A stretch of 28,497 nt of DNA from Moniliella sp. 'wahieum' (Eukaryota). Within the stretch, counting starts at the first letter, position 1, and each line of letters begins with the position of its first letter. The position numbers were made by a program, and so were the translations under genes. A model generated the notes under the pieces. It was not told the DNA's origin. It searched no databases and saw only the letters and a list, made by a program, of their open reading frames with translations. Of the stretch, positions 7,624 to 28,497 are shown piece by piece. The stretch covers positions 186,001 to 214,497 of the forward strand of contig RSEE01000105.1 in NCBI GenBank assembly GCA_003971905.1. The letters run 5' to 3'.

Positions 7624-10600
7624 CTAGAGCATAGACCGACACAGCGGACACGTCGAGTTGCCCGAGGTGGTGACCCACTTGTACAGGCACTGGCCGTGGA
7701 ACTTGTTCTTGCACGTCTTGCACGGCTTGGTCGGCAACGAGTGGTCCGCCGGGCTGAGGATGGAGTAGCAAATCGCACATTCTTGTCCTTCAAAGCCGGC
7801 AAAGCGCGCTTCGGCGTTCCGTCCAAACAGCGCGACCGCATCGAGCAAGGGCGCGTTCCGGTTGGCGACCAGCTGCTGCGTGGCCAACATCCAGGCGCGC
7901 CACTGCGCGACCGGCACCGCGGGCGGGTTCCGACCGCCATCGCCAATGCTGACGGGCGCGAGGGGGAAGTTCGCGGAAGACGGACACGCACCTCGAGCGT
8001 CTCTTCGTCCACCGTGTACGACGCCACGGCCTCGTGCGACCCGGCCGCACGCACGCCCAGGCCGGCAATGCCCAGTGCGCCCCCGTGGCGGGCGAGCTGG
8101 TTGCCGCCTGCACCTCGGCCATCTCCCATCCGGCCAGGAGGGGCGTGCAGAAGCGGACCGTGAAGCGCTCCACGGCACTTGTCAGTGCCGGTCCCGCAGA
8201 CTCGTCCACCACGACCGCACCAGCGCCGCACGGTGGCCAGCGCACGGAGGTACACGTGCGCGGCCAAGACCGACAGAGCGGACGGGTCGGTGACATCGAG
8301 CAGGTCCAAGTACACCTCTTCAATCGCCCACAGATCCAAGTCCAGCTCCTTGGCCTGCAGCGCAGGCAACAGCGTGTCAAACGTCACGGGCAGCAACGCC
8401 TTTTCTACCGCGCGCGCACGCCGCAACCGATCCATCACGCCGTCGCAAGCGGAAGCGACGCGCCATCAAAGTGATCCAGCAGCAACAGCCAGCCCAAAAG
8501 GGTCCCCCAGGCGTGCCGTCGATCGACTGGGCTCGCACTCGGCTCCTCGGGCTCCCCGGGCTCGCCGAGCAAGAGCGAGGTGCGCGTACTAAGCGCATCT
8601 AGAAGCCCAACAATGAAGTTGGGTGCCTTGTCCATCGACGGGGGAGACGGTACACGCTCCAACGGCGCTGCACTGCTGGCGTGCGAACCATCGCTCTCCT
8701 CGTCCTCTTCGTCCTCGTCCTCTCCCTCGTCGTGCGAACCACGGCTGTTCATACCCTCTTTCGAACGGGGGGATGGGGCGTGGCTGGGTCGGGCGTGGCA
8801 CTGGCAAAGCTCGTCTCGGAGGAAGAATCATGGTCGTCAGAAGCCAGGGATGTGGGTGGCTTGGTGTCGAGGTCTTCTTGCACCGTCTCGCGTTGAGCAC
8901 TTGCCTGGGTCGCCGCTGCCACCCTCGGCCTCCATGGCCAAGCGCACCACTTCGTCTTCGGTGCGTTTCTTGACGATCGCACTGAGGCGGCGGAACGAGA
9001 GCAGCTGGACCGACGGCGTAGGACCGGCCAAAAGGAGCGAGACCAAGGTACGATCCACCGAGGCCGTCTGACCCGCTTCTTCCACGGCCGTATCAAATGC
9101 CTTGTTGGGAATGGCAGCCATCAGAGGCAAGAGGGATCCCCACAGCGCGTCCTCACTGGTGAGGCAGCGGGCGGGGGCGTGGCCAACGCCTGCGATTCCG
9201 GCGCCAACGCAAGAACAAACCCACGACCAGTGCGTACACGCCGCCTCGGCGCTCGTTCCACGTATCGGCCAGGATCTGGTTGGAGGCGGCAAACCGGAGC
9301 AACTCGCCAAAAAAGGTGGCTGCTGCCGTAGCCGCGGGCCAGCTGGCCGGATCCTTGGGCGTCTCGGCCGCCATCTCCAACGCCATCTCGGCAGCGTCGA
9401 CGAGGAACTCCCAGTGGCTGCCGGCGACTGTTTTGATGATGGGGAGGAAGCGGTGCCCAGGTAGCGATCTGGCCCGCCAGAGCGTCCGGCAACTCTTCTT
9501 CGGAAGCGTACCACTTTTCCAGGGCCTTGAGAGCGAGCACAGCACGGTGCGCAGTGATCGGCTCGGCGTCTTCAGGGCCTGGGCTGGTGGCGAGAATGTA
9601 GGACAAGAGCCGGGCACCTTGCACGCCAGCCTCCTCCGGCCCGCACGCCAGTAAGACGAACGACGGCGTCGGTCTGCGATCGCTCAATCACCTTGTCCTC
9701 CCCATCTCCTGCACCAGCGCGCGCGCGACGGCCACACCCAGTGCCTCGCCCTGCAGGGCCAAGCCATGCGCCCACCGCACCCCTTTCTCCAACGCCGTCT
9801 GCGACGGCGCGCCAAAGCGCACCACGCCGGTGATCAGACGCTGCAGACTGCGCGTCGCGTTCGCATCCCCGGCCAAGGCGTCGCTGGCCAAGCGGCCAGC
9901 GACGCAGGTCAGGCCGTTGGCATCACTAGACTCGGCCCCCTTGGCGGCGTCTTGCACCGCGGCCAAGACAGCATCGGCAGCGCCACCGCGGGAAGCAGCA
10001 GCAACGGTGCTCGTCAAGCTGTGCACCACCTGATCAAAGACGACGTTGATCGCGTCCCAAGAGGAAGGATGGAAAACGTTGTTGGCCGTGCGAGGGGAGA
10101 CCAGCATCTTCCGCCAGCAGCGCGAGGTACAGCCAGTGAATGAGCAGGTCGGGATACGCTTGTACCACCGTCTCATGTTCCTCGCTGACCTGGAGCGAGA
10201 AGAGAGTGGCACGCGCGTACGCCGAAGACCCAATTCGTCGTACACGCCCGCTTGGCCGGCGGAGCAGCGGAGCGGGCCTCGGCCAATAGACAGGGGACCA
10301 GCGGATCGACCAAAGCAAGCTCGGGCTCGGAGGCAGGCAAGGACGAGCCAAGACGGTCAGTTCGTCCACCATCGGCGGAAGGACGCTGGCGATCGGGGCA
10401 GACACGCCGTCCGGAGCGAGGTGCGCAGCGGCTTTCTGCAGCACCTCGAGCGGCGCCGCGGTTGGGTCGGAGACCAAAAGCCAATTGCCCCGCCGCGTGC
10501 GTGATTACCTCGTCCTGCATCTCGGCCGGGAGGGCGAAGGTGAGGGCCCACAACTTGCGCGCCACGTCGGTTGCCTGTGCCGAGCTGCGCGAGGGATCGA

Positions 10601-14079: not shown

Positions 14080-14660
14080 ATGGTCTCCAGCAGCCGCCGC
14101 ACACCCGCAAGGCCCAGCTCAGCTCCCCGCCCATCTGCGGCGCAAGCTCATGAGCTCCCCGCTCAGCAAGGAGCTCCGGGCAGCACGGGCGTAGTCAGTC
14201 CTCCGTCTTCTCGCCCACAGCGGCCCCTCTGAACAGGATCATCCGCCAGCCAGCGCGCGAGCAGAGCCATGCGCTCTCTCTGTCGCTGTCGACCGCGGAA
14301 ACATCCGTCCTGTCCCTCCTCTCCATCCTCTTGCCTGGTGAGCGTGTGCTGACGCGCGTCTGGTTTGCTTGCACAGATCCGCTCCATGCCCGTTGTCAAG
14401 GGCGACGAGGTCCAGATTGTCCGGGGCTCCAAAAGGGCGCCGAGGGCCGTGTGACCCAGGTGTACCGCAAAAAGTGGGTCATCCACGTGGACCGCGTCGA
14501 GCGCGAAAAGGCAAAGGAACAAACGGTGCCCATCCCCGTTGCTGCGTCCAACGTGGTGATCACCAAGCTCAAGCTCGACAAGAGCCGCAAGCTCATCATC
14601 TCGCGCAAGTCGGGTAAGCCTGTCGCCGACGCCGAGGGCGACGTTGAGATGAAGGCCTAA
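14080..14660 (+). CDS. RPL26: 60S ribosomal protein L26 (uL24); intron ~14191-14376; frameshifted
   Basis: MVSSSRR..RKAQLSSP..HLRRKLMSSPLSKELR | IRSMPVVKGDEVQIVRGS..KGAEGRVTQVYRKKWVIHVDRVEREK..TVPIPVAASNVVITKLKLDKSRK. Branch GCTGAC 14348-14353, acceptor CAG ending 14376. Confidence 0.96.
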
Positions 14661-18112: not shown

Positions 18113-18269
18113 GCAAGTCGTGGTCGAGCGGAGAATTCAGTTAGCGTGGGAGGGGGACCACTTTTGGTACGCTAGGCGTCATAGCATTGCAGAGATAGGC
18201 TAAAAGGGCGGAAGACAATTGCTTCTCCCGGCCGAAGAGAAAGCAAGGGCCAAAGCAAAGCAAATGCAA

Positions 18270-19478
18270 TTAGAAGTTCTTGATGACCGCGTCGGTGAAC
18301 TCGGCGGGGTGGACTTGCCGCCAACGTCGGGAGTGCCAATGCGAGCTTCAGAGATGACATTGTACAGCGAGTTGGCAATCGTGTTGGCCTGTGCGTTGAG
18401 GCCGAGGTGACGGAGCATCATCGTCGACGAAAGCAGCATCGCTGTCGGGTTGGCCTTACCCGTGCCCTCAATGTCCTTGGCCACGTGACGGCAGCCAGGC
18501 TCGTACAGCGCGTATTCACGTCCAATGTTGGCACCGGGGATCACACCGGGGCCACCGACCAGGGCAGCACCAATGTTCGACACAATGTTGCCGTACAGGT
18601 TGGGCGTGACCACGACATCGAACTGCTGCGGGTTGCTGACGAGCTGCATGGAAGTGTTGTCGACAATCATCGAGTTGTGCTCAATGCCAGCGTGGCTGTA
18701 CTCCTTGGCCACCTCGTTGAAGGTGCGGAGGAAAAGACCGTCACCAAGCTTCATAATGTTGGCCTTGTGCACACACGTCACCTTCTTGCGCCCATTGCGC
18801 ACAGCAAAGTCAAACGCGAAACGTGCGATCCGCTCGGCCTTTGCCCGCGTCGAAACCTTCAGCGACTCAACCACGCCAGGGTAGGACTGGTGCTCCAGAC
18901 CCGAGTACTCTCCCTCCGTGTTCTCACGGATGATGACAAAGTCCACGTTGGGGTGGCGCGTCGGGTGGCCGGGCAACGTCTTGCAAAGCACCATCGAGGC
19001 GTAAATGTCGAGCTGCTGACGCATGGCCACGTTCCACGAGTTGTGGCCGCCAGCCTCAATGGGGGTGTAGAAGATACCTAGCCATCGCATCCGTTAGCAT
19101 TCTCCAGGGAAAACCAAGAAACAATGAGAAAACAAAACAAAACAAACGTACCCTTGAGACCGACCTTGTTACGCTGGAGGGATTGCATGGCCTCCTGGAA
19201 GAGCGCCTCGGAGCCGTGCGTCTCGCCAGACACGTCAAACTCCTCCCACTCGACGGGCACGTTGAGCGACTCAAACACCTGCTTGACCGAGTGCGTGACC
19301 TCCTTGCCAATGCCGTCACCAGGGCAGAGAGTCACCACCGACACACCGCCGTACTTCTTGGGCAGAGCAGGGGGTTGTCCATGCTCAGGGTGCTCATGGC
19401 GCGCGCGGCGAGACGCGGGGCAGGGGCAGCGGCAGCGCGGACGCTGCGGGCAAGGCCAAGGCTGCGCGGGAGAGCCAT
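18270..19478 (-). CDS. IDH1: Mitochondrial NAD-dependent isocitrate dehydrogenase, regulatory subunit 1; intron 19078-19151; two frameshifts (~19370, ~18308)
   Basis: Arg/Ala-rich presequence, [70 protein letters not shown] (Asn for the metal-binding Asp residues) and YEPGCRH mark the regulatory subunit. Reconstructed end AEFTDAVIKNF*. Confidence 0.96.
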
Positions 19479-21160
19479 GTTGGAGAGTGTGTGCGGGAGG
19501 GGGGGAGGGCAAGGGGTGGCGACAGAGGTGGTGGTGGGGGGGGGGCGGGGGCAGGCGCCGAAGAAAGTGCAGACTGCGCTGGGCGAGCACCGAATCCGGC
19601 GCAAACGCAAACCGCGCAGGCCGACGCAAACACGCGCAAACCAGCCGCAAATCGGTGTGTTTTGGGTGCGTTTGCAGCCAAGGAACGAGAAGGCAACCAA
19701 CGGGAAAACAGCGGCGGAATTCTGCAGAAAAGGGGGCTCTGACGCGTGACGTACCTTGCTTCTGTGCGCCTTGCGGTCTGGAGCAGGGGAGGCGGCCGGG
19801 CATGCGCACAACGCAGACTGCCCGCCTACCGTGTTCCAGCTTCCTGCGCTGCCGGCGGCGTGCTGGGACGCCCAGGTGCAGGCTGAGGCTGGGACCTGAG
19901 ACGGCGGAGGCCGGAAGATCCGGCGCAAAGGCAGTGTCTGTGTGGATACGTTGCAGCCAACCATGCCATGTCCCCGGCCAGCCCTGAGCGCCTGAGCCAC
20001 CAACGACGTCACTGTCGCTGGAAGCGTCACGCGTCACTGGTCAGTGGTCCTTAGTCAAAGACAAAGTCAGTAGTCACTGGTTCTTACGTGGCACCCACTG
20101 CCGCCGGCTGCGACGCCTCCCGCTTCCTGGAGTGCGGATCAAGGGCCACACCCACGTGGAGCGGCGCAGGAGAGGATTCGATGTGGAGGTTCGGGGGAAA
20201 CCGGCCAAGAAGTGCTCCATCCAAGTCATTCATCACGCGCTTCACACATTATCGCCATCACATGCACCATGCATCTGCCTCTGGAAGCGGGATGTGCGCT
20301 GGTGTGCCTGGAGGGGCGTGGCTGTCAAGAAGGATTTGTGTACGCCGCCTGGAAATCAAACTCAAGCCATTGCGGAGCAGCCATGCCGCAGATGCCCGAT
20401 CGACCACATCGCTAGAGTGCCAGGGACTACGCCCGCCTCGGCCCCTCAGGCACCCACACTGCACGGCCATCTGATGGACGACTGCGCGCTGGCGCTGAGC
20501 CATGGGTACATGGGTGCGCATCTCAGCGACGTTGACCGGTAGCCTGCAACCGGGAACCTCGCCAGCCAGATCCCCACTCTGCTCGACCCCGTTGAAGTTC
20601 TACTCGTACACAACGTTGACTAGTGATCCTAGTGACCAGCTGCTCGCTGTTCTGCGCGGTGTTGTTGACACGCCGGGCGTCGAACTTTACCATACGTCAT
20701 GCGTGTGGATCCGTGAGCATTTGAGATGTGCGATCGATGTCAAATCAGAGATCGCATCGGAGAGAAGACTGAGCCCGTGCCTCCGCGCCACGGCCCCCTA
20801 TCGACCACTCCAGCCGACGCCCAGCGCCCAGCGCCCAGGCCCGAACAGCCTCAACGTGAACCCGCCCAATCCTCGCGCAGCCTTCCGGAGCCCCAGGCCA
20901 GGGCCAGAGCTTGGCGCCGGGCCAGCGCTCCGCTGCTCAGCGCTCAGTCTCAGCATCTTCCAAGCCAATGCGTGTCGACACACACCCCGCCGCCGAAACA
21001 CACGCAAAAACATATCCCCCCTTCCCCAAAATGGCCGAAAACCCGCGCCATGAAAAAAGAAGACATTCCATTCCGCCCGCCCCGAGCCAGGTCGCTGTTG
21101 CGTTCGGACGGCTGCTTCTCTCGCTCACACGCTACCATCCTCCCCTTGCCGTCGCTCGTG
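19479..21160. promoter_or_regulatory. Divergent intergenic region shared by IDH1 and IDH2
   Basis: 1682 bp between head-to-head ATGs with no convincing gene. Contains a 12-bp inverted repeat (19740-19751/20025-20036), a GTCAC cluster and a CGCAAA cluster. Confidence 0.6.
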
Positions 21161-22307
21161 ATGCTCGCCCTTCCTGCTCTTCGCACTGGCCTGCGCGCCG
21201 CGTCTGTTCGCCCTGTGGCCAGCGCGGCCATGCCCGCCCTCGCCCGCGGCCTCCAGACCCCCGCCGGCGGACTGACCAACGCGTACGCCAAGAAGCCCGA
21301 GGCCGACGGCAAGTACCCACGTCCCCATCCCCGGTGACGGCATTGGCCCCGAGGTGGCCGACGCTGTCAAGAACATTTACAATGCCGCCGACGTGCCCAT
21401 CAAGTGGGAGGAGGTCGAGGTTACCCCCTACATCAACGAGCAGGGCAAGTCCACCATCCCCGCCGAAGCGGTCAAGAGTATTCGTCAGAACACCGTCGCC
21501 CTCAAAGGTCCCCTTGCTACCCCAGTGGGCAAGGGCCACGTTTCGCTCAACCTGACGCTGCGCCGGACGTTCAAGTTGTACGCCAACGTGCGTCCCTGCC
21601 GCTCGATCGAGGGCTTCAAGACGGCCTACGACAATGTCAACACCGTTCTCATCCGCGAGAACACCGAGGGCGAGTACTCGGGCATTGAGCACGAGATTGT
21701 GGATGGCGTGGTGCAGTCGATCAAGCTGATCACGCTCGAGGCTTCGGAACGTGTGGCCCGGTACGCGTTCCACCACGCGCAACAGAGTGGCCGCAAGCGC
21801 GTCACGGCCGTGCACAAGGCCAACATTATGCGCATGTCCGACGGCATGTTCCTCCACGCCTGCCGCGCCGTCGCCAAGGAGTACCCCGACATTGCGTACG
21901 ACGAGGACCTCCTCGACCGCGCTTGCCTGCGGATCGTGCAGGACCCCGCGCCCTACTCGGACCGCGTGATGGTCATGCCCAACTTGTACGGTGACATTTT
22001 GTCCGACATGTGCGCCGGTCTGATTGGCGGTCTGGGCCTGACCCCCTCGGGCAACATTGGCTACGACGCTAGCATCTTTGAGGCTGTGCATGGCTCTGCC
22101 CCGGACATCCAGGGTATGGACAAGGCCAACCCGACCGCGCTGCTGCTTTCGTCCATCATGATGCTGCGCCACATGAGCTTGTTCGACAAGGCCGACAAGA
22201 TTGAGGCGGCTGTTTTCAAGGCCATCGCCGAGGGCCAACGCACCGGCGACTTGGGCGGCAAGCTCGGCACCCGTGCCTTTACCGACGAGATCATCAAGCG
22301 CCTCTAA
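21161..22307 (+). CDS. IDH2: Mitochondrial NAD-dependent isocitrate dehydrogenase, catalytic subunit 2; frameshift at ~21320
   Basis: Presequence [72 protein letters not shown] (catalytic Asp residues) and [11 protein letters not shown] mark the catalytic subunit. Confidence 0.97.
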
Positions 22308-23918
22308 TCTGCTGACAAGCTACTGGTCCCGCCGCGTACCCCTGCCGATTGTGGGCGAGGCAAGCGATAATCCTATCACCTTCGCTTAGGTCCACTGTCT
22401 GTTGCGTTGTGTCTTGGAATAGAGCTGGTGCAGTAGCAGGACAGGAACGCGATGCTGGTATAGGTGAATGGAATCCAGTCGGGTGCTGCTAGGGAAAACA
22501 GATGTGAGCCAGGCAACGAAAGAGCAACCAAGCAAGGAAAAGCGTGTTGAAAATCTCTTTTGCCCTTGTGGGCCAGGAGAGTGTGTTTAGTAGATATATT
22601 GCGGTACTGCCCCCTGGGAGAGGCCAGCACGGGCGTGGGCCCTCCGACCTTTGAGTTTGACACCGTTACAGTTTGCACGAGTGGGCTGCCCATCAAAACG
22701 GATCTATTATTTGGCTCCCGCTGGCTCGAGCAAGGGCTACAAGGCTGTGGAAACGCAGGGTTACACCGAAGGACGAAGTGTGCCGATGCGGCGCCTCAGG
22801 ACCTGCCCTCCGGTTCCCCCACAAGAAGCCACCCATGCCAAAATTCATAGCGGCCAGGAAACGGCCCACCTTGTGGTTCATCCGTGCAAACGGGTTGCGC
22901 TACATGACACTGCATCACTCTGCTGAACGGACTCCCGTTCCCAATCCACACTGAGATGACATCCGTCTGTGAGGTGTTGGACGGTGGCGCGCCCGTCCAT
23001 TCCACGACGCTACACCCCCGCTGTGGGGTGGATGTGGAGCTTGTAGGGACTATTGCCGTGCCAGGCTGTCATTGCTTTACGCTCGACAGCGTATGGCGGC
23101 GAGGCGTAGGGTCAAGTCGAATAAGCACATTCCGCTTGGTGTGCAAGATAGGCCTCTCTGACGGCCTTGCCTTCCTGTCCCACTGTACTGAACTTGAACG
23201 AGTACGTCGCGGACGTCGGTTCCTGAGAATTGCCCGGTGGTAGCCGACAGGAGATGGCGGATGGAGCATTGAGTTACTGAGTACTGATCACAGGGATGAT
23301 GCGGCTGAGCAGATGAGGTCGATGAGGCCGAGTGTGCTCAGACTGGGCGGACAGCCGAGGGACGGAAGACGAGCCGAGGGAGCCGGCTTTTGTTTTGTTG
23401 CTTTGTTTGTGTTTTACTGATGGGGCGCCGAGCGCAGATCGGGCGAGAGATATCAATGTGTCAGGGAGCGCGCACAGGGCCAGTGTTGGCCATCTATCCG
23501 GCCAGCGGATTAGATCGGTGAGATTGAGACGGTGCCAGCGTTACCCGGCTGCGGGCGCTTCTGGGCATATCTCCGACGCACGGGCCGCCGGCTGGAAGGG
23601 GGCAGCGGACCCGCCTCCACGCTCCTGTGGAGGCCGGAGGCCAGAATGGAGTCACATCAAAGTCAGGCTGCTGTCACATGTCATTGCAGCCCCTCCCTCC
23701 CGCCCCAAGGGCCACGATGCTGATCCTGATCTTAACCTTAGTAACAGTGTGGCAGTTGCAGGGGACCCAAGCCAAGCGCACCAGCGCTGCCCCGCTGCCC
23801 AGTGTCCCAAAAAACCCCATTTTGTCACACCTCGGCGATGGACGTTTCTGCGGGGATTGTTGATTGTTCGTTCGTACGATTGGCAGCAGCACTATTTTCT
23901 CCCTACACAATCAAGTTG

Positions 23919-23946
23919 AACCTTCGAGCTTCAAGCTTCAAGCTTC
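23919..23946. repeat. Heptamer tandem repeat (RAGCTTC)x4
   Basis: AACCTTC GAGCTTC AAGCTTC AAGCTTC; this is the reverse complement of the unit at 2244-2270. Confidence 0.85.
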
Positions 23947-24079
23947 CACCCCGTCTTCCATTGTCCAACCATCCCCGACCCACCACCGCCTCGCCCATCA
24001 GCGCTTCAAAAGCCAAGCTTCACGCCCCGCCCTCCCGCGCCCACTCCGCCTTGTTCTGTGGCCGCCCCCATCGGCTCGC

Positions 24080-25876
24080 ATGCGGCTCATGCGCCTCCCC
24101 GCCTGCCTCGGCTCTGCGTGGCAGCGCGTCGCGGCGTCGCGGCTGTGGTCCTACCGTCTGACCCTCTTTGGCCGCGCCCTCCTGCTCGTCACCACGCTGG
24201 TCGTCGTCAATGGCATCATCTGGGCCTTGGCCGCCGGCATTCTGCCCCACAAAATCCTTGGCTTTGCCCTGCTGGCTTGGACCACCGGCTTGCGCCACGC
24301 CCTCGATGCCGACCACATCACTGCCATCGATAACACTGTCCGCCGCATCATGAGCGGTGCCGGCCCCGCCCGCGACCCGCCCCAGTCCCATAAACAGTTC
24401 CGACGCCGCTTGCGCTTTTGGCGCAAACCCGCCCCTCCCCCGCCCCCGACGCTGAACAGCCGACGGAACCAGAGGCTGTCGCGGACGATCAAGGCGCCGA
24501 TGATGCCATTGTTGCTCAACCTCACCCTCACCCCACCCCCACCCTCCACCTCCACCTCCACCTTCCGACGACTACCTCGATCCTGGCCAGGTCGGCCCTG
24601 AGGACGCTGTTGCGCCCGATGCGCATCATCGCCTGCCCACCCCCATCACCGCTGGCTCCTTCTTCAGCCTGGGCCACTCTACCATTGTGATTGCGGTGAT
24701 TATTGCCGTGGCCGTGTCGGCCGCTGTGGCTGGCAACCTGGGTTCAGCCTCTAGTGTGGGCAATGTGATTGGCACGTCTGTCTCGGGGGGGCTGCTAATG
24801 ATTTTGGGGCTGATCAATCTGTGTATTCTTATCTCATCCATTCGCCGCCTGAAGAAACTGCAGCAAACGCTTGCGGCCGCCGAGGCGGGCGATGCCGAGG
24901 CGGAAGATGGTGTGTTGCAATGGCGTCCTAGTGGCTGCTTGAGCGTACTGGCCATGCCCTTGCTCCGAGCGACCGATCGCGCTTGGAAACTGTACCCGAT
25001 CGGTGTCCTCTTTGGCCTGGGCTTCGATACTTCCTCCACCATTGCCGTCATCAGCGTCTCGGCCCTGGCCACCATCGACGCGCCCAAACGGCACAATGCA
25101 AGTGTCGTCCTATTTGCCTTCCTCTTTGCTGCGGGCATGTGTCTCGTCGACTCACTCGATAGCATTATGGCCGTGTACGTCTATGCGCCCAGCGAGGTGG
25201 CCAATCGGTTTGCGCTGTTTGAACGTCGCTGGACACCGCCTCGGGCACAAACAGAACAATTGCAACCCGATGCGGAGGACTGCAAAGAGAAGCGCCAAGA
25301 TACCAAGACCGCCGTACCCGTCGAGCCCTCGGGCAAGAAAGATGACGTACGAGGAGACAGGTGGGATGGTCCCGGTGCTGTCAGAGGATGGCGGCGGAAA
25401 GGCCGCCCAGCCCACCTGGAACGTAAGGCCCTGCTCACGATGATCGGTCCAGCTACCCAAATCCAACTGCTCATGACATTGCTCAGCATCCTCATCGCAT
25501 TCGCCATTGGCTTGATCCAGATCCTGTCCTTGATTGGCAGTCGGTGCACCCAATGTGCCGCGCGGCCGAACGGCAGCAGGAGCACGGCGATGGCGGCCTG
25601 GCCGGCCGCTGGTGGCTTGCCTGGCAAAACGCGGCGGACAATTTGACCTACATTGGAGCTGGCATCGCAGGCTTCTTCTTTGCCGTGCTCATCACCGTCA
25701 TCTTGGCACGGTGGTACTTTTCGGCCCGGGCTAAGCGCCGTGCTCGCGCCGAGACGGCCGCTCCGTTGCCTTACTCGGCCCAAGGTGCACGCGGAGGGGA
25801 TGCGTCGGACAACAGGGTTCTCGAAGCGGACCGGGCGCCGGGGGCGCCGACGCTAGAGTCGGACGCAAAGGGGTAA
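24080..25876 (+). CDS. High-affinity nickel/cobalt permease, NiCoT family (Nic1/HoxN/NixA-like); frameshifted
   Basis: Signature motifs GLRHALDADHITAIDN, FFSLGHSTIV, IGTSVSG, YPIGVLFGLGFDTSS, FAAGMCLVDSLD, TLLSILIAFAIGLIQIL and YIGAGIAGFF, all in the expected order. Confidence 0.93.
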
Positions 25877-26783: not shown

Positions 26784-28058
26784 ATGGGTGACCACGGTAC
26801 GTGCGAAGCCACACCCGCCGCCCGGCCGCCGGCCGAGCCCAGCCCCGCCTGGCCCCGCCGGCCCCCCCGCCGCCTCCTCTCCTCTCCTCCCCGGCGCAGT
26901 GCAGCGCCGAGCCCGCCGTCCTCGCCGTCCCGCGGCGGCCCCGCACTCCGCCCCCCCGCCCGCCCGCCCCCCCGGTACTGACTGGACACTCTCCGCTTCT
27001 CTCACCGCCCCTGCGCTGCTCCTCTCCGCTCGGTGCGTCCTCCTCCGTGCGCCCCCCCCGCTGACCTGCCCCCTCTACTCCCCAGCCGAATCCTGGAGCC
27101 CGCGCGACGCTCCCGCCAGCCCCACCGCCGCAGCCTCAGCCCCGCCCCCCCGCCCCGACGACGAGCCGACGCCGACGTCGCCGCGCCGCGACGACCGCGA
27201 ACGCGACTATGACGACCGTGACGCCCGCCGTGGTGAGTATGACGACCGCCCTCCCCCCGGCCGGTACGACCGCGACGACCGCCTGCCCTCGCGCCCCGAC
27301 CCCCAGGATGCCAACCCCGGCAACAACCTCCACGTCTCGGGCGTGTCCAAACTGCTCGACGACCACCAGCTTGAGGAGGCATTTGCCAAGTTTGGCAAGG
27401 TTCGTCCGTCTTCCTCCTTTCATGGTGCCGCGTGCGTCGCGTTCTCGCTCATGCGGCATGCTGACCATGCGCGCTGCCAACAGGTAACCAAGACGCAGAT
27501 CATGTATGACCCGCACTCGCGCGAATCGCGTGGGTTTGCTTTTGTGACGTATGAAACAGCTGAGGAGGCAGACGCGGCGATTGAAGGCATGAATGGCGTC
27601 GAGCTTTCGGGCCGCACGCTGGTTGTGCAGAAAGCACGCCGTGGTCGTGCGCGCAGCCCGACGCCTGGTCGCTACCGCGGACCACCCAAGTACGTCGTCC
27701 CTCCCTTTGTTTGCCTGCTTGTCCCGTTCGGACGATTGGCCATACTGACGTGGTTTCTCTCAGGCCGTGGTGGGCCCGGCGGTGGCTACGGACGCGGAGG
27801 GTACGATCGCTATGGCGGACCACCGCGTGGCTACCCCCCTCCTCGCGACATGGACGCCTGGGGGCCGCCTCCGGACCGCTACCCCCCCCCGCGTGGATAC
27901 GATCGGTACGGCTACCCACCCCCGCCGCGCGATTACATGCCCCCGCGCGGAGGTTACCGCGACTACAGTCCCCCGCCCTCGATGCGTCGGTACGACGATT
28001 ATGCTCGCCCGCCGCCCCCGCCGCGTGGGTACGACGATATGCCCCCGCTCGCCACTAA
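26784..28058 (+). CDS. Transformer-2 (TRA2)-like single-RRM splicing regulator; introns 26797-27085, 27400-27483, 27690-27763
   Basis: MGDH|AESWSP joins in phase, followed by an RD-rich N-terminal region. RRM NPGNNLHVSGV...DPHSRESRGFAFVTY is followed by the TRA2-type linker ARRGRARSPTPGRYRG and an R/G/Y/D/P-rich tail. Likely true stop TAA 28056-28058 after correcting one indel. Confidence 0.85.
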
Positions 28059-28476: not shown

Positions 28477-28497
28477 TAGGGTTAGTTAGGGTTAGGG
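28477..28497 (+). repeat. Telomere-type TTAGGG repeats running off the window end
   Basis: TAGGG TTAG TTAGGG TTAGGG, with the G-rich strand oriented 5'->3' toward the end as expected for a right telomere. Only ~3.5 units visible. Confidence 0.6.

Follow-up and report, generated by a model that had tools for sequence, protein, structure and literature searches.

A long first intron in a TRA2-like gene of Moniliella sp. 'wahieum' as a candidate for conserved unproductive retention

The window analyzed here, a stretch of 28,497 nucleotides from Moniliella sp. 'wahieum' (GCA_003971905.1, contig RSEE01000105.1, positions 186,001 to 214,497), carries a TRA2-like gene near its right-hand end. To the left of this gene lie two isocitrate dehydrogenase (IDH) subunit genes arranged head to head (18200-22310), an arrangement that recurs elsewhere in the assembly, and a NiCoT-family nickel transporter gene (Pfam NicO; 23864-25876) that is broken by apparent frameshift errors. 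Telomere-like TTAGGG repeats occupy the window end (28478-28497); the sister contig, C82, runs several kb beyond the matching point. The TRA2-like gene has four exons, and its features are as follows.

26784..26796, plus strand: exon 1, coding part; ATG at 26784; 13 nt encoding MGDH plus one base, with a phase-1 junction
26797..27085, plus strand: intron 1; 289 nt, 80% G+C, 56% C; candidate retained (detained) intron
26797..26808, plus strand: donor GTACGT and an AG ending at intron position +12, a 5' signature common to relatives
26873..26904, plus strand: internal pyrimidine tract and two CAGs (ends 26899 and 26904), the cassette acceptors of an earlier note
26975..26982, plus strand: distal branch-site motif GTACTGAC, which contains TGA 26979-26981 and is also donor-like
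27033..27038, plus strand: nested GTGCGT resembling a donor, at 53 nt from the acceptor; kept in the sister haplotype
27059..27085, plus strand: CTGAC of the proximal branch site, 25 nt before the intron end, and CAG acceptor
27086..27399, plus strand: exon 2; a short RS/RD-rich region and then the RRM start; apparent indel errors
27400..27483, plus strand: intron 2; 84 nt; control intron, seen as a 28-residue insertion in alignment A1
27484..27689, plus strand: exon 3; remainder of the RRM and a RARSPTPGRYxGPPK linker; Pfam RRM_1, E=8e-15
27690..27763, plus strand: intron 3; 74 nt; control intron
27764..28058, plus strand: exon 4, coding part; tail rich in R, D, Y, P, and G; indels make the end approximate

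The encoded protein contains a single RRM, as judged from Pfam (RRM_1 alone) and alignment A1. Upstream of it, the sister haplotype encodes an RRSLSP motif and an RD-rich stretch; the tail, for which exon 4 was compared by eye with the paralogue and the Thecaphora protein P0064, is rich in R, D, Y, P, and G and is not of the RS type. The best named protein match is from Tilletiaria anomala (64%), and further fungal relatives are named transformer-2 or SR45a. Kinship with TRA2/SR45a-like proteins is suggested by an NPG start and by a TPTPG-type linker after the RRM, the latter of which we take to be a TRA2 signature, and for the smut homologue P0064 the third atlas match was an arthropod 'Transformer-2 alpha' cluster (score 0.90). 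Human Tra2beta structures matched the protein at E ~2e-12 only, below other RRMs, no TRA2 chain was matched when the linker peptide was compared with solved structures, and a search of representative sequences for homologues gained no named animal or plant sequence. The label TRA2-like given to the gene in the earlier note is a fair one by its fungal matches named transformer-2 or SR45a, and the kinship that it expresses is at the family level.

A first exon of 10 to 13 nt of the MxD type is common to the window gene, its paralogue, and agaric homologues, and exon 2 of the window gene holds no in-frame Met before the RRM. Exon 2 also contains a consensus donor, GTGAGT (27233-27238), which is present in the paralogue as well. 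Its use with the intron-2 acceptor would remove the beginning of the RRM and cause a frameshift, and the hexamer may be a mere by-product of codon use.

The earlier note had singled out intron 1 as a poison-isoform switch, in which a cassette exon (26905-27032), the nested donor at 27033, or retention would bring in the stop at 26979. The ATG, the 13-nt exon, the donor at 26797, the acceptor end at 27085, both CAGs, the TGA, and GTGCGT all lie where it had placed them, and the 53-nt nested intron running from GTGCGT at 27033 to the shared acceptor is present in the sequence. The spacing of the proximal branch site agrees with the 22 to 23 nt found in RPL26 introns of the same genome. The distal motif, GTACTGAC, matches the branch-site consensus and begins with a donor-like GTACTG (26975), a hexamer that serves as the donor of intron 2 in the paralogue. 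Only two stop triplets occur in intron 1 in any frame, and these are the TGAs of the two CTGAC motifs; the stop on which the note had relied is thus itself part of a branch-site motif. The identical 8-mer is the sole branch motif of intron 1 in the paralogue, with P=0.0003 in the shuffled intron core for a motif picked post hoc, and a 12-mer around it was not enriched genome-wide (17 matches versus 16 for a control). No branch motif was found upstream of either internal CAG, which bears out the note's caveat that the internal acceptor lacks a canonical branch site; in the introns examined in this genome, the branch motif lies ~19 to 29 nt before the acceptor, with intron 1 of the paralogue as an outlier at 45 nt.

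AGAA is a binding site of Tra2beta, and multiple copies are expected in a TRA2-type poison exon; intron 1 contains no AGAA and a single GAA. A stable fold of the whole intron was not supported (z=+0.4). In RPL30-like regulation, a hairpin sequesters the 5' splice site. Such a hairpin was not supported here: z averaged +0.29 over 12 first-intron donors and -0.27 over 22 controls, and no common fold emerged. Nor was an intronic snoRNA supported, an Rfam search of 17 loci at E<=1 returning one tRNA only, outside the gene.

Chance expectations were taken from 5000 dinucleotide shuffles of the intron-1 core, with the features defined after the sequence had been seen. An in-frame stop arose in 38% of shuffles, a pyrimidine-tract acceptor in 47%, and an internal donor in 4.5% under a strict definition or 39% under a loose one, while an acceptor followed by a donor in cassette geometry arose in 0.9% (0.5% with a stop as well) and an AG-free stretch of >=172 nt, as in intron 1, in 0.6%. 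The low rates (0.6 to 4.5%) make the layout somewhat unusual for an intron of 80% G+C and therefore favor the earlier note. By the density of GTRNGT across the window (102 in 57 kb), an internal donor is expected about one-third of the time, and intron 2 also holds a nested GTGCGT (27432), which defines a 52-nt intron. Downstream introns in this genome measure 70 to 92 nt. Long introns occur elsewhere: the RPL26 intron in the window spans ~185 nt, those in six of eight other RPL26 copies span 166 to 236 nt, and the long introns of one RPL26 pair contain extra branch motifs.

The assembly holds four copies of the TRA2-like gene, namely, the window copy, its sister haplotype, and a paralogue pair on C63 and C107 in which 38 of 66 third positions of exon 3 have changed. 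The sister haplotype (L002, on C82) is colinear with the window throughout; the two are 94% identical and, over 28.9 kb, differ by 718 mismatches and 533 gap openings. Because of these gap openings, and of 16 counted within intron 1, the frame of intron 1 is unreadable from the assembly, and in the copies that were translated, a disturbance of the exon-2 frames is plain to see. In the sister haplotype, intron 1 is 282 nt long, the nested intron is 47 nt, and the same TGA is out of frame, so that translation of a retained intron 1 ends instead on the TGA that belongs to the proximal branch site. TGA 26979 is accordingly in frame, as the note had claimed, in the window copy and not in the sister haplotype, just as the note's own caution about frame-shifting indels had allowed. 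Its distance of 51 nt from 27032 is correct, but the conclusion drawn from that distance presumes a reliable frame and a junction-dependent rule for nonsense-mediated decay (NMD).

Intron 1 of the paralogue lacks the GTGCGT donor and has no alignable counterpart of the internal pyrimidine tract and CAGs; beyond the one 8-mer, the two paralogue introns aligned no better than shuffles (z near 0). In the paralogue (L005 1108-1303), 45 nt separate the sole branch motif from the likely CAG acceptor and 12 nt separate it from an in-frame AAG, each an outlying value; with the AAG as acceptor, the protein would gain 11 residues, most of them Ala. In both haplotypes, position 51 of this intron carries an in-frame TAG. 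Copy number in the assembly varies by gene: the LTN1 C-terminus is on 2 contigs and the TRA2-like gene on 4, the IDH pair is on 4 more contigs, and RPL26 is on 8 more, with 4 further intron types. This survey covered window positions 14080-14660, 7627-8181, and 18200-22310, with copies on C7, C10, C11, C14, C19, C40, C52, C58, C60, C63, C70, C82, C107, and C115. The uneven numbers suggest an old polyploid, represented by two haplotypes and with retention biased by dosage, or a mixture of organisms.

For a comparison across fungal relatives, we used the best 80 of 448 matches from a metagenome scan for homologues. All 13 full-length basidiomycete sequences have an intron 1 of 190 to 475 nt; the set includes the four copies of this genome and one duplicate, and in each sequence retention would lead to a stop inside the intron. 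The phase-1 position after an exon of 10 to 13 nt and the GTACGT donor are kept. An AG ending at +10 to +13 was present in all nine distinct basidiomycete first introns, which are not independent because the sequences are related, versus 3 of 23 control introns. Agaric genomic loci have four further introns of ~48 to 57 nt each, according to pattern-based calling in which one call was wrong and one was missing.

The 3' part of intron 1 is identical at 69 of 78 positions in one agaric pair, compared with 150 of 244 third codon positions and 28 of 53 positions in the 3' untranslated region (p ~3e-6), which by this comparison places the intron under purifying selection in that pair. Within Moniliella, the substitutions between the window and the sister haplotype are fewer in intron 1 (6/273) than in introns 2 and 3 together (10/147; p=0.03), a difference that argues for a retained intron, and the paralogue pair has no significant constraint on intron 1 (p=0.32), which argues against it. 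In five agaric loci (L010, L023, L026, L027, and L084), a CAGCATC plus ACGAC-repeat element follows the donor within the first 35 nt of intron 1; its nucleotides are conserved even where the frame shifts, and it is a candidate protein-binding site. A conserved peptide encoded by the retained frame was rejected, as L010 shifts frame yet keeps the nucleotide motif (by eye). Many agarics (e.g., L008, L011, and L021) carry, in exon 2, an in-frame Met that precedes both the RS region and the RRM, so that an intron-retaining RNA could there give a shorter protein by re-initiation.

In ascomycete homologues, too, the first intron is in phase 1; it measures 67 to 144 nt in 20 distinct calls (8 genomic loci were unparsed). 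It was spliced in six of six transcript contigs, a contrast with the basidiomycetes that is confounded because ascomycete mRNAs are longer. The first introns of seven ascomycete loci (L038, L051, L053, L057, L059, L067, and L068) share a terminal ACGCGTAG motif, preceded in most by CTGACTC, and this conservation exceeds what a plain acceptor needs.

Among the best 80 loci, 16 were judged to be basidiomycete-type transcript contigs, two of which overlap identically. By nearest named match, most side with agarics and two with rusts, four being uncertain, and none clearly comes from the subphylum of the window organism. Intron-1 sequence was kept in 14 of the 16, ahead of a reading frame that is open from exon 2 onward to the stop, the downstream introns being absent. 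Three of the 14 contain exon 1 and all of intron 1; the other 11 start inside intron 1, 3 of them without a clear branch motif, which leaves room for an internal promoter or acceptor. The remaining two contigs were spliced at intron 1, and one of these, L007, keeps intron 2 instead. L011 is without introns 2 to 5 of its genomic relatives L026 and L084 but still has intron-1 sequence, namely, the 3' part, and spliced forms from the same or very close species were found for L019 (242/242 with P0173) and for L011 (236/243 with P0151).

The count of 14 in 16 is inflated by a length floor of ~1 kb, as no returned metagenome contig was shorter than 1006 nt. Without the intron, 8 of the 14 retained contigs would drop below 1 kb; those that would exceed 1 kb even with intron 1 removed comprise five distinct retained contigs and two spliced ones. 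We also tallied the N-termini of the 67 agaric-type sequences among 109 environmental proteins examined. Forms with a full N-terminus (spliced) and forms with a downstream start stood at 15:3 on contigs below 1000 nt and at 8:41 above, and therefore spliced and retained forms both appear to be common.

We favor, with a probability of roughly 0.55, a conserved unproductive retention, that is, a splice-or-retain switch on intron 1 that lowers protein output by nuclear detention or decay of the retained RNA. Intron 1 would be the form taken here by a first intron of the TRA2/SR45a-like gene that is enlarged across basidiomycetes, and it would be spliced slowly or conditionally, so that a share of transcripts would lose all other introns and keep this one. 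Retained RNA of the window gene would make no protein, because translation would stop in the intron or shift frame (in the shifted frames, a stop follows after 41 or 105 codons) and exon 2 offers no in-frame Met before the RRM; a choice between splicing and retaining intron 1 is therefore the most likely form of the switch. As far as sequence comparison goes, the conservation of position, length, and donor, the retention in relatives, and the constraint on the intron are established, and from these we infer retention in the window organism itself. Feedback by the encoded protein on the splicing of intron 1, suggested by analogy with Tra2beta, is possible although somewhat doubtful, and coupling of the retained RNA to NMD is to be regarded as slightly more tentative. 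A more detailed version, in which basidiomycete TRA2-like proteins would bind an element by the intron-1 donor and block their own splicing, with the paralogues here cross-regulating each other like TRA2A and TRA2B, is speculative and on balance unlikely. The earlier note was right about the intron and partly wrong about the reasons. Its idea that a long intron 1 yields an unproductive TRA2-like isoform is sustained by whole-intron retention in relatives and not by the cassette or by TGA 26979, and neither the paralogue nor the contigs of relatives gave any sign of a cassette exon or of donor 27033 acting as the switch.

The retention could instead be unregulated, with a long, C-rich, promoter-proximal intron simply being spliced last, no switch having been selected, and assemblers and the length floor over-reporting intron 1. 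High background retention in fungi and the length floor fit such an inefficiency, as do the RPL26 introns of 166 to 236 nt in the same genome, one pair of which has extra branch motifs, the nested donor in intron 2, and the lack of a stable fold (z=+0.4). We nevertheless hold it to be unlikely, given an agaric-pair intron more conserved than third codon positions, an invariant donor together with the AG at +10 to +13 across all nine distinct first introns, and the five distinct retained versus two spliced forms among contigs passing 1 kb without intron 1. A switch between 5' splice sites would join the donor at 27033 or GTACTG at 26975 to the normal acceptor, and NMD would remove the resulting RNA with its extended, frameshifted or stop-containing exon 1. 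Both donors occur in both haplotypes, only 4.5% of shuffles contain a strict internal donor, GTACTG is the donor of intron 2 in the paralogue, and 52% of frameshifting alternative-site events in Cryptococcus rise in upf1 mutants (PMC5006051). However, GTGCGT is missing from the paralogue intron, intron 2 holds an equivalent nested donor, and partial splicing is not demonstrable in the three full-intron contigs, for which matching genomic copies are lacking; the chance that this is the operative switch appears small.

A fossil or non-canonical layout of two introns would divide the region into intron 1a, with its branch at 26975-26982 and an acceptor CAC ending at 26989, a micro-exon (26990-27032) encoding Ala, Ser, and Pro, and intron 1b (27033-27085), the introns having fused after loss of the acceptor. 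Such a layout would account for the additional donor and branch motif as well as for the absence of AG over 172 nt (0.6% of shuffles), and in the paralogue an AAG stands at an equal distance from the shared 8-mer, with Ala-codon-like sequence after it (by eye). Yet the micro-exon segment did not align significantly with the paralogue (p=0.27 to 0.28), an RPL26 intron in this genome skips an AG ~10 nt after its branch motif, and most relatives have a conserved Trp within one to four codons of the junction, all of which make such a layout very improbable. Still less credence attaches to the animal-style poison cassette exon (26905-27032), which would be included at high protein level. Its acceptor-then-donor geometry is rare in shuffles (0.9%, or 0.5% with a stop, post hoc), but no branch motif precedes its acceptors where other introns here have one ~19 to 29 nt upstream, its stop is a branch motif in an unreliable frame, AGAA is absent and GAA occurs once, the intron does not align with that of the paralogue, and exon skipping is rare in Cryptococcus (accessible part of PMC5006051).

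Our search, with subscription literature mostly outside it, returned no earlier account of fungal TRA2-like genes in which retention of intron 1 is conserved, and our best reading is that this retention is a variant of the known unproductive splicing of SR-type genes. In vertebrates, the TRA2 poison exon sits after the ATG exon. It is an ultraconserved cassette exon of TRA2B and TRA2A, bound and activated by Tra2beta, with cross-regulation between the two genes (PMC11791180, in part). The locus described here resembles that system in its TRA2-like RRM protein, in having two paralogues in one assembly, and in an unproductive isoform near the 5' end. It differs in that retention, not a cassette, is involved, that the paralogue introns do not align, and that AGAA is absent; the window intron lacks a cassette branch site, exon conservation, and AGAA sites, each a mark of TRA2-type poison exons.

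Cryptococcus neoformans, like Moniliella a basidiomycete, displays condition-dependent intron retention, with 7,879 of 37,814 introns retained and 98% of retention events within open reading frames not raised in upf1 mutants (PMC5006051, in part). Among the exceptions are the long introns of two RNA-binding genes, Hrb1 (392 nt; gene name from PMC6811503) and YRA1 (243 nt), which in the same mutants rise 4.0-fold and 2.4-fold, respectively (PMC5006051 Table S7). CNAG_00399, or CNA03870, is named transformer-2-beta in PMC12691695, and its 108-nt intron within the coding sequence goes from ~4.5% retention in exponential phase to 22% in stationary phase (PMC5006051). It is tied to the window gene by name only, because the Cryptococcus orthologue was not among the best 120 matches of our homologue searches. 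CNA03870 is absent from the upf1 lists as given in PMC5006051; it lies near the 5% threshold of that test and may have escaped it. No 'transformer' entry was found in the available supplements of PMC5006051, PMC7049704, PMC12915825, and PMC12934609, bioRxiv preprint supplements being outside this search.

Intron retention in fungi is mostly hard to tell from noise. The position, size, donor, and retention of this intron are common to mushrooms and rust-like fungi, and the first three are found here, in a relative of the smuts, as well; a splicing-factor gene with a shared retained intron is a good candidate for regulated retention. The locus would allow a direct test of TRA2-family homeostasis outside animals and of NMD versus nuclear detention in basidiomycetes. 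Among known systems, the window intron would work most like the retained intron of fungal srp2, the orthologue of SRSF5, whose unproductive retention is described for Neurospora, Aspergillus, and Postia and which in Neurospora is an NMD target, as revealed with a nam7 mutant (PMC4379411, in part). Both cases concern an SR-type splicing factor with one intron kept in an otherwise spliced mRNA and stop codons in the retained intron, and srp2 retention was likewise seen in basidiomycete expressed sequence tags; the differences are that srp2 belongs to another gene family and that its intron is internal, corresponding to human intron 5 (PMC4379411, in part). If the version with self-repression and cross-regulation holds, the TRA2-like gene would be a second case, after SRSF5/srp2, of one splicing-factor family with unproductive splicing in animals and fungi, here at the 5' end and reached in fungi by retention and not by exon inclusion.
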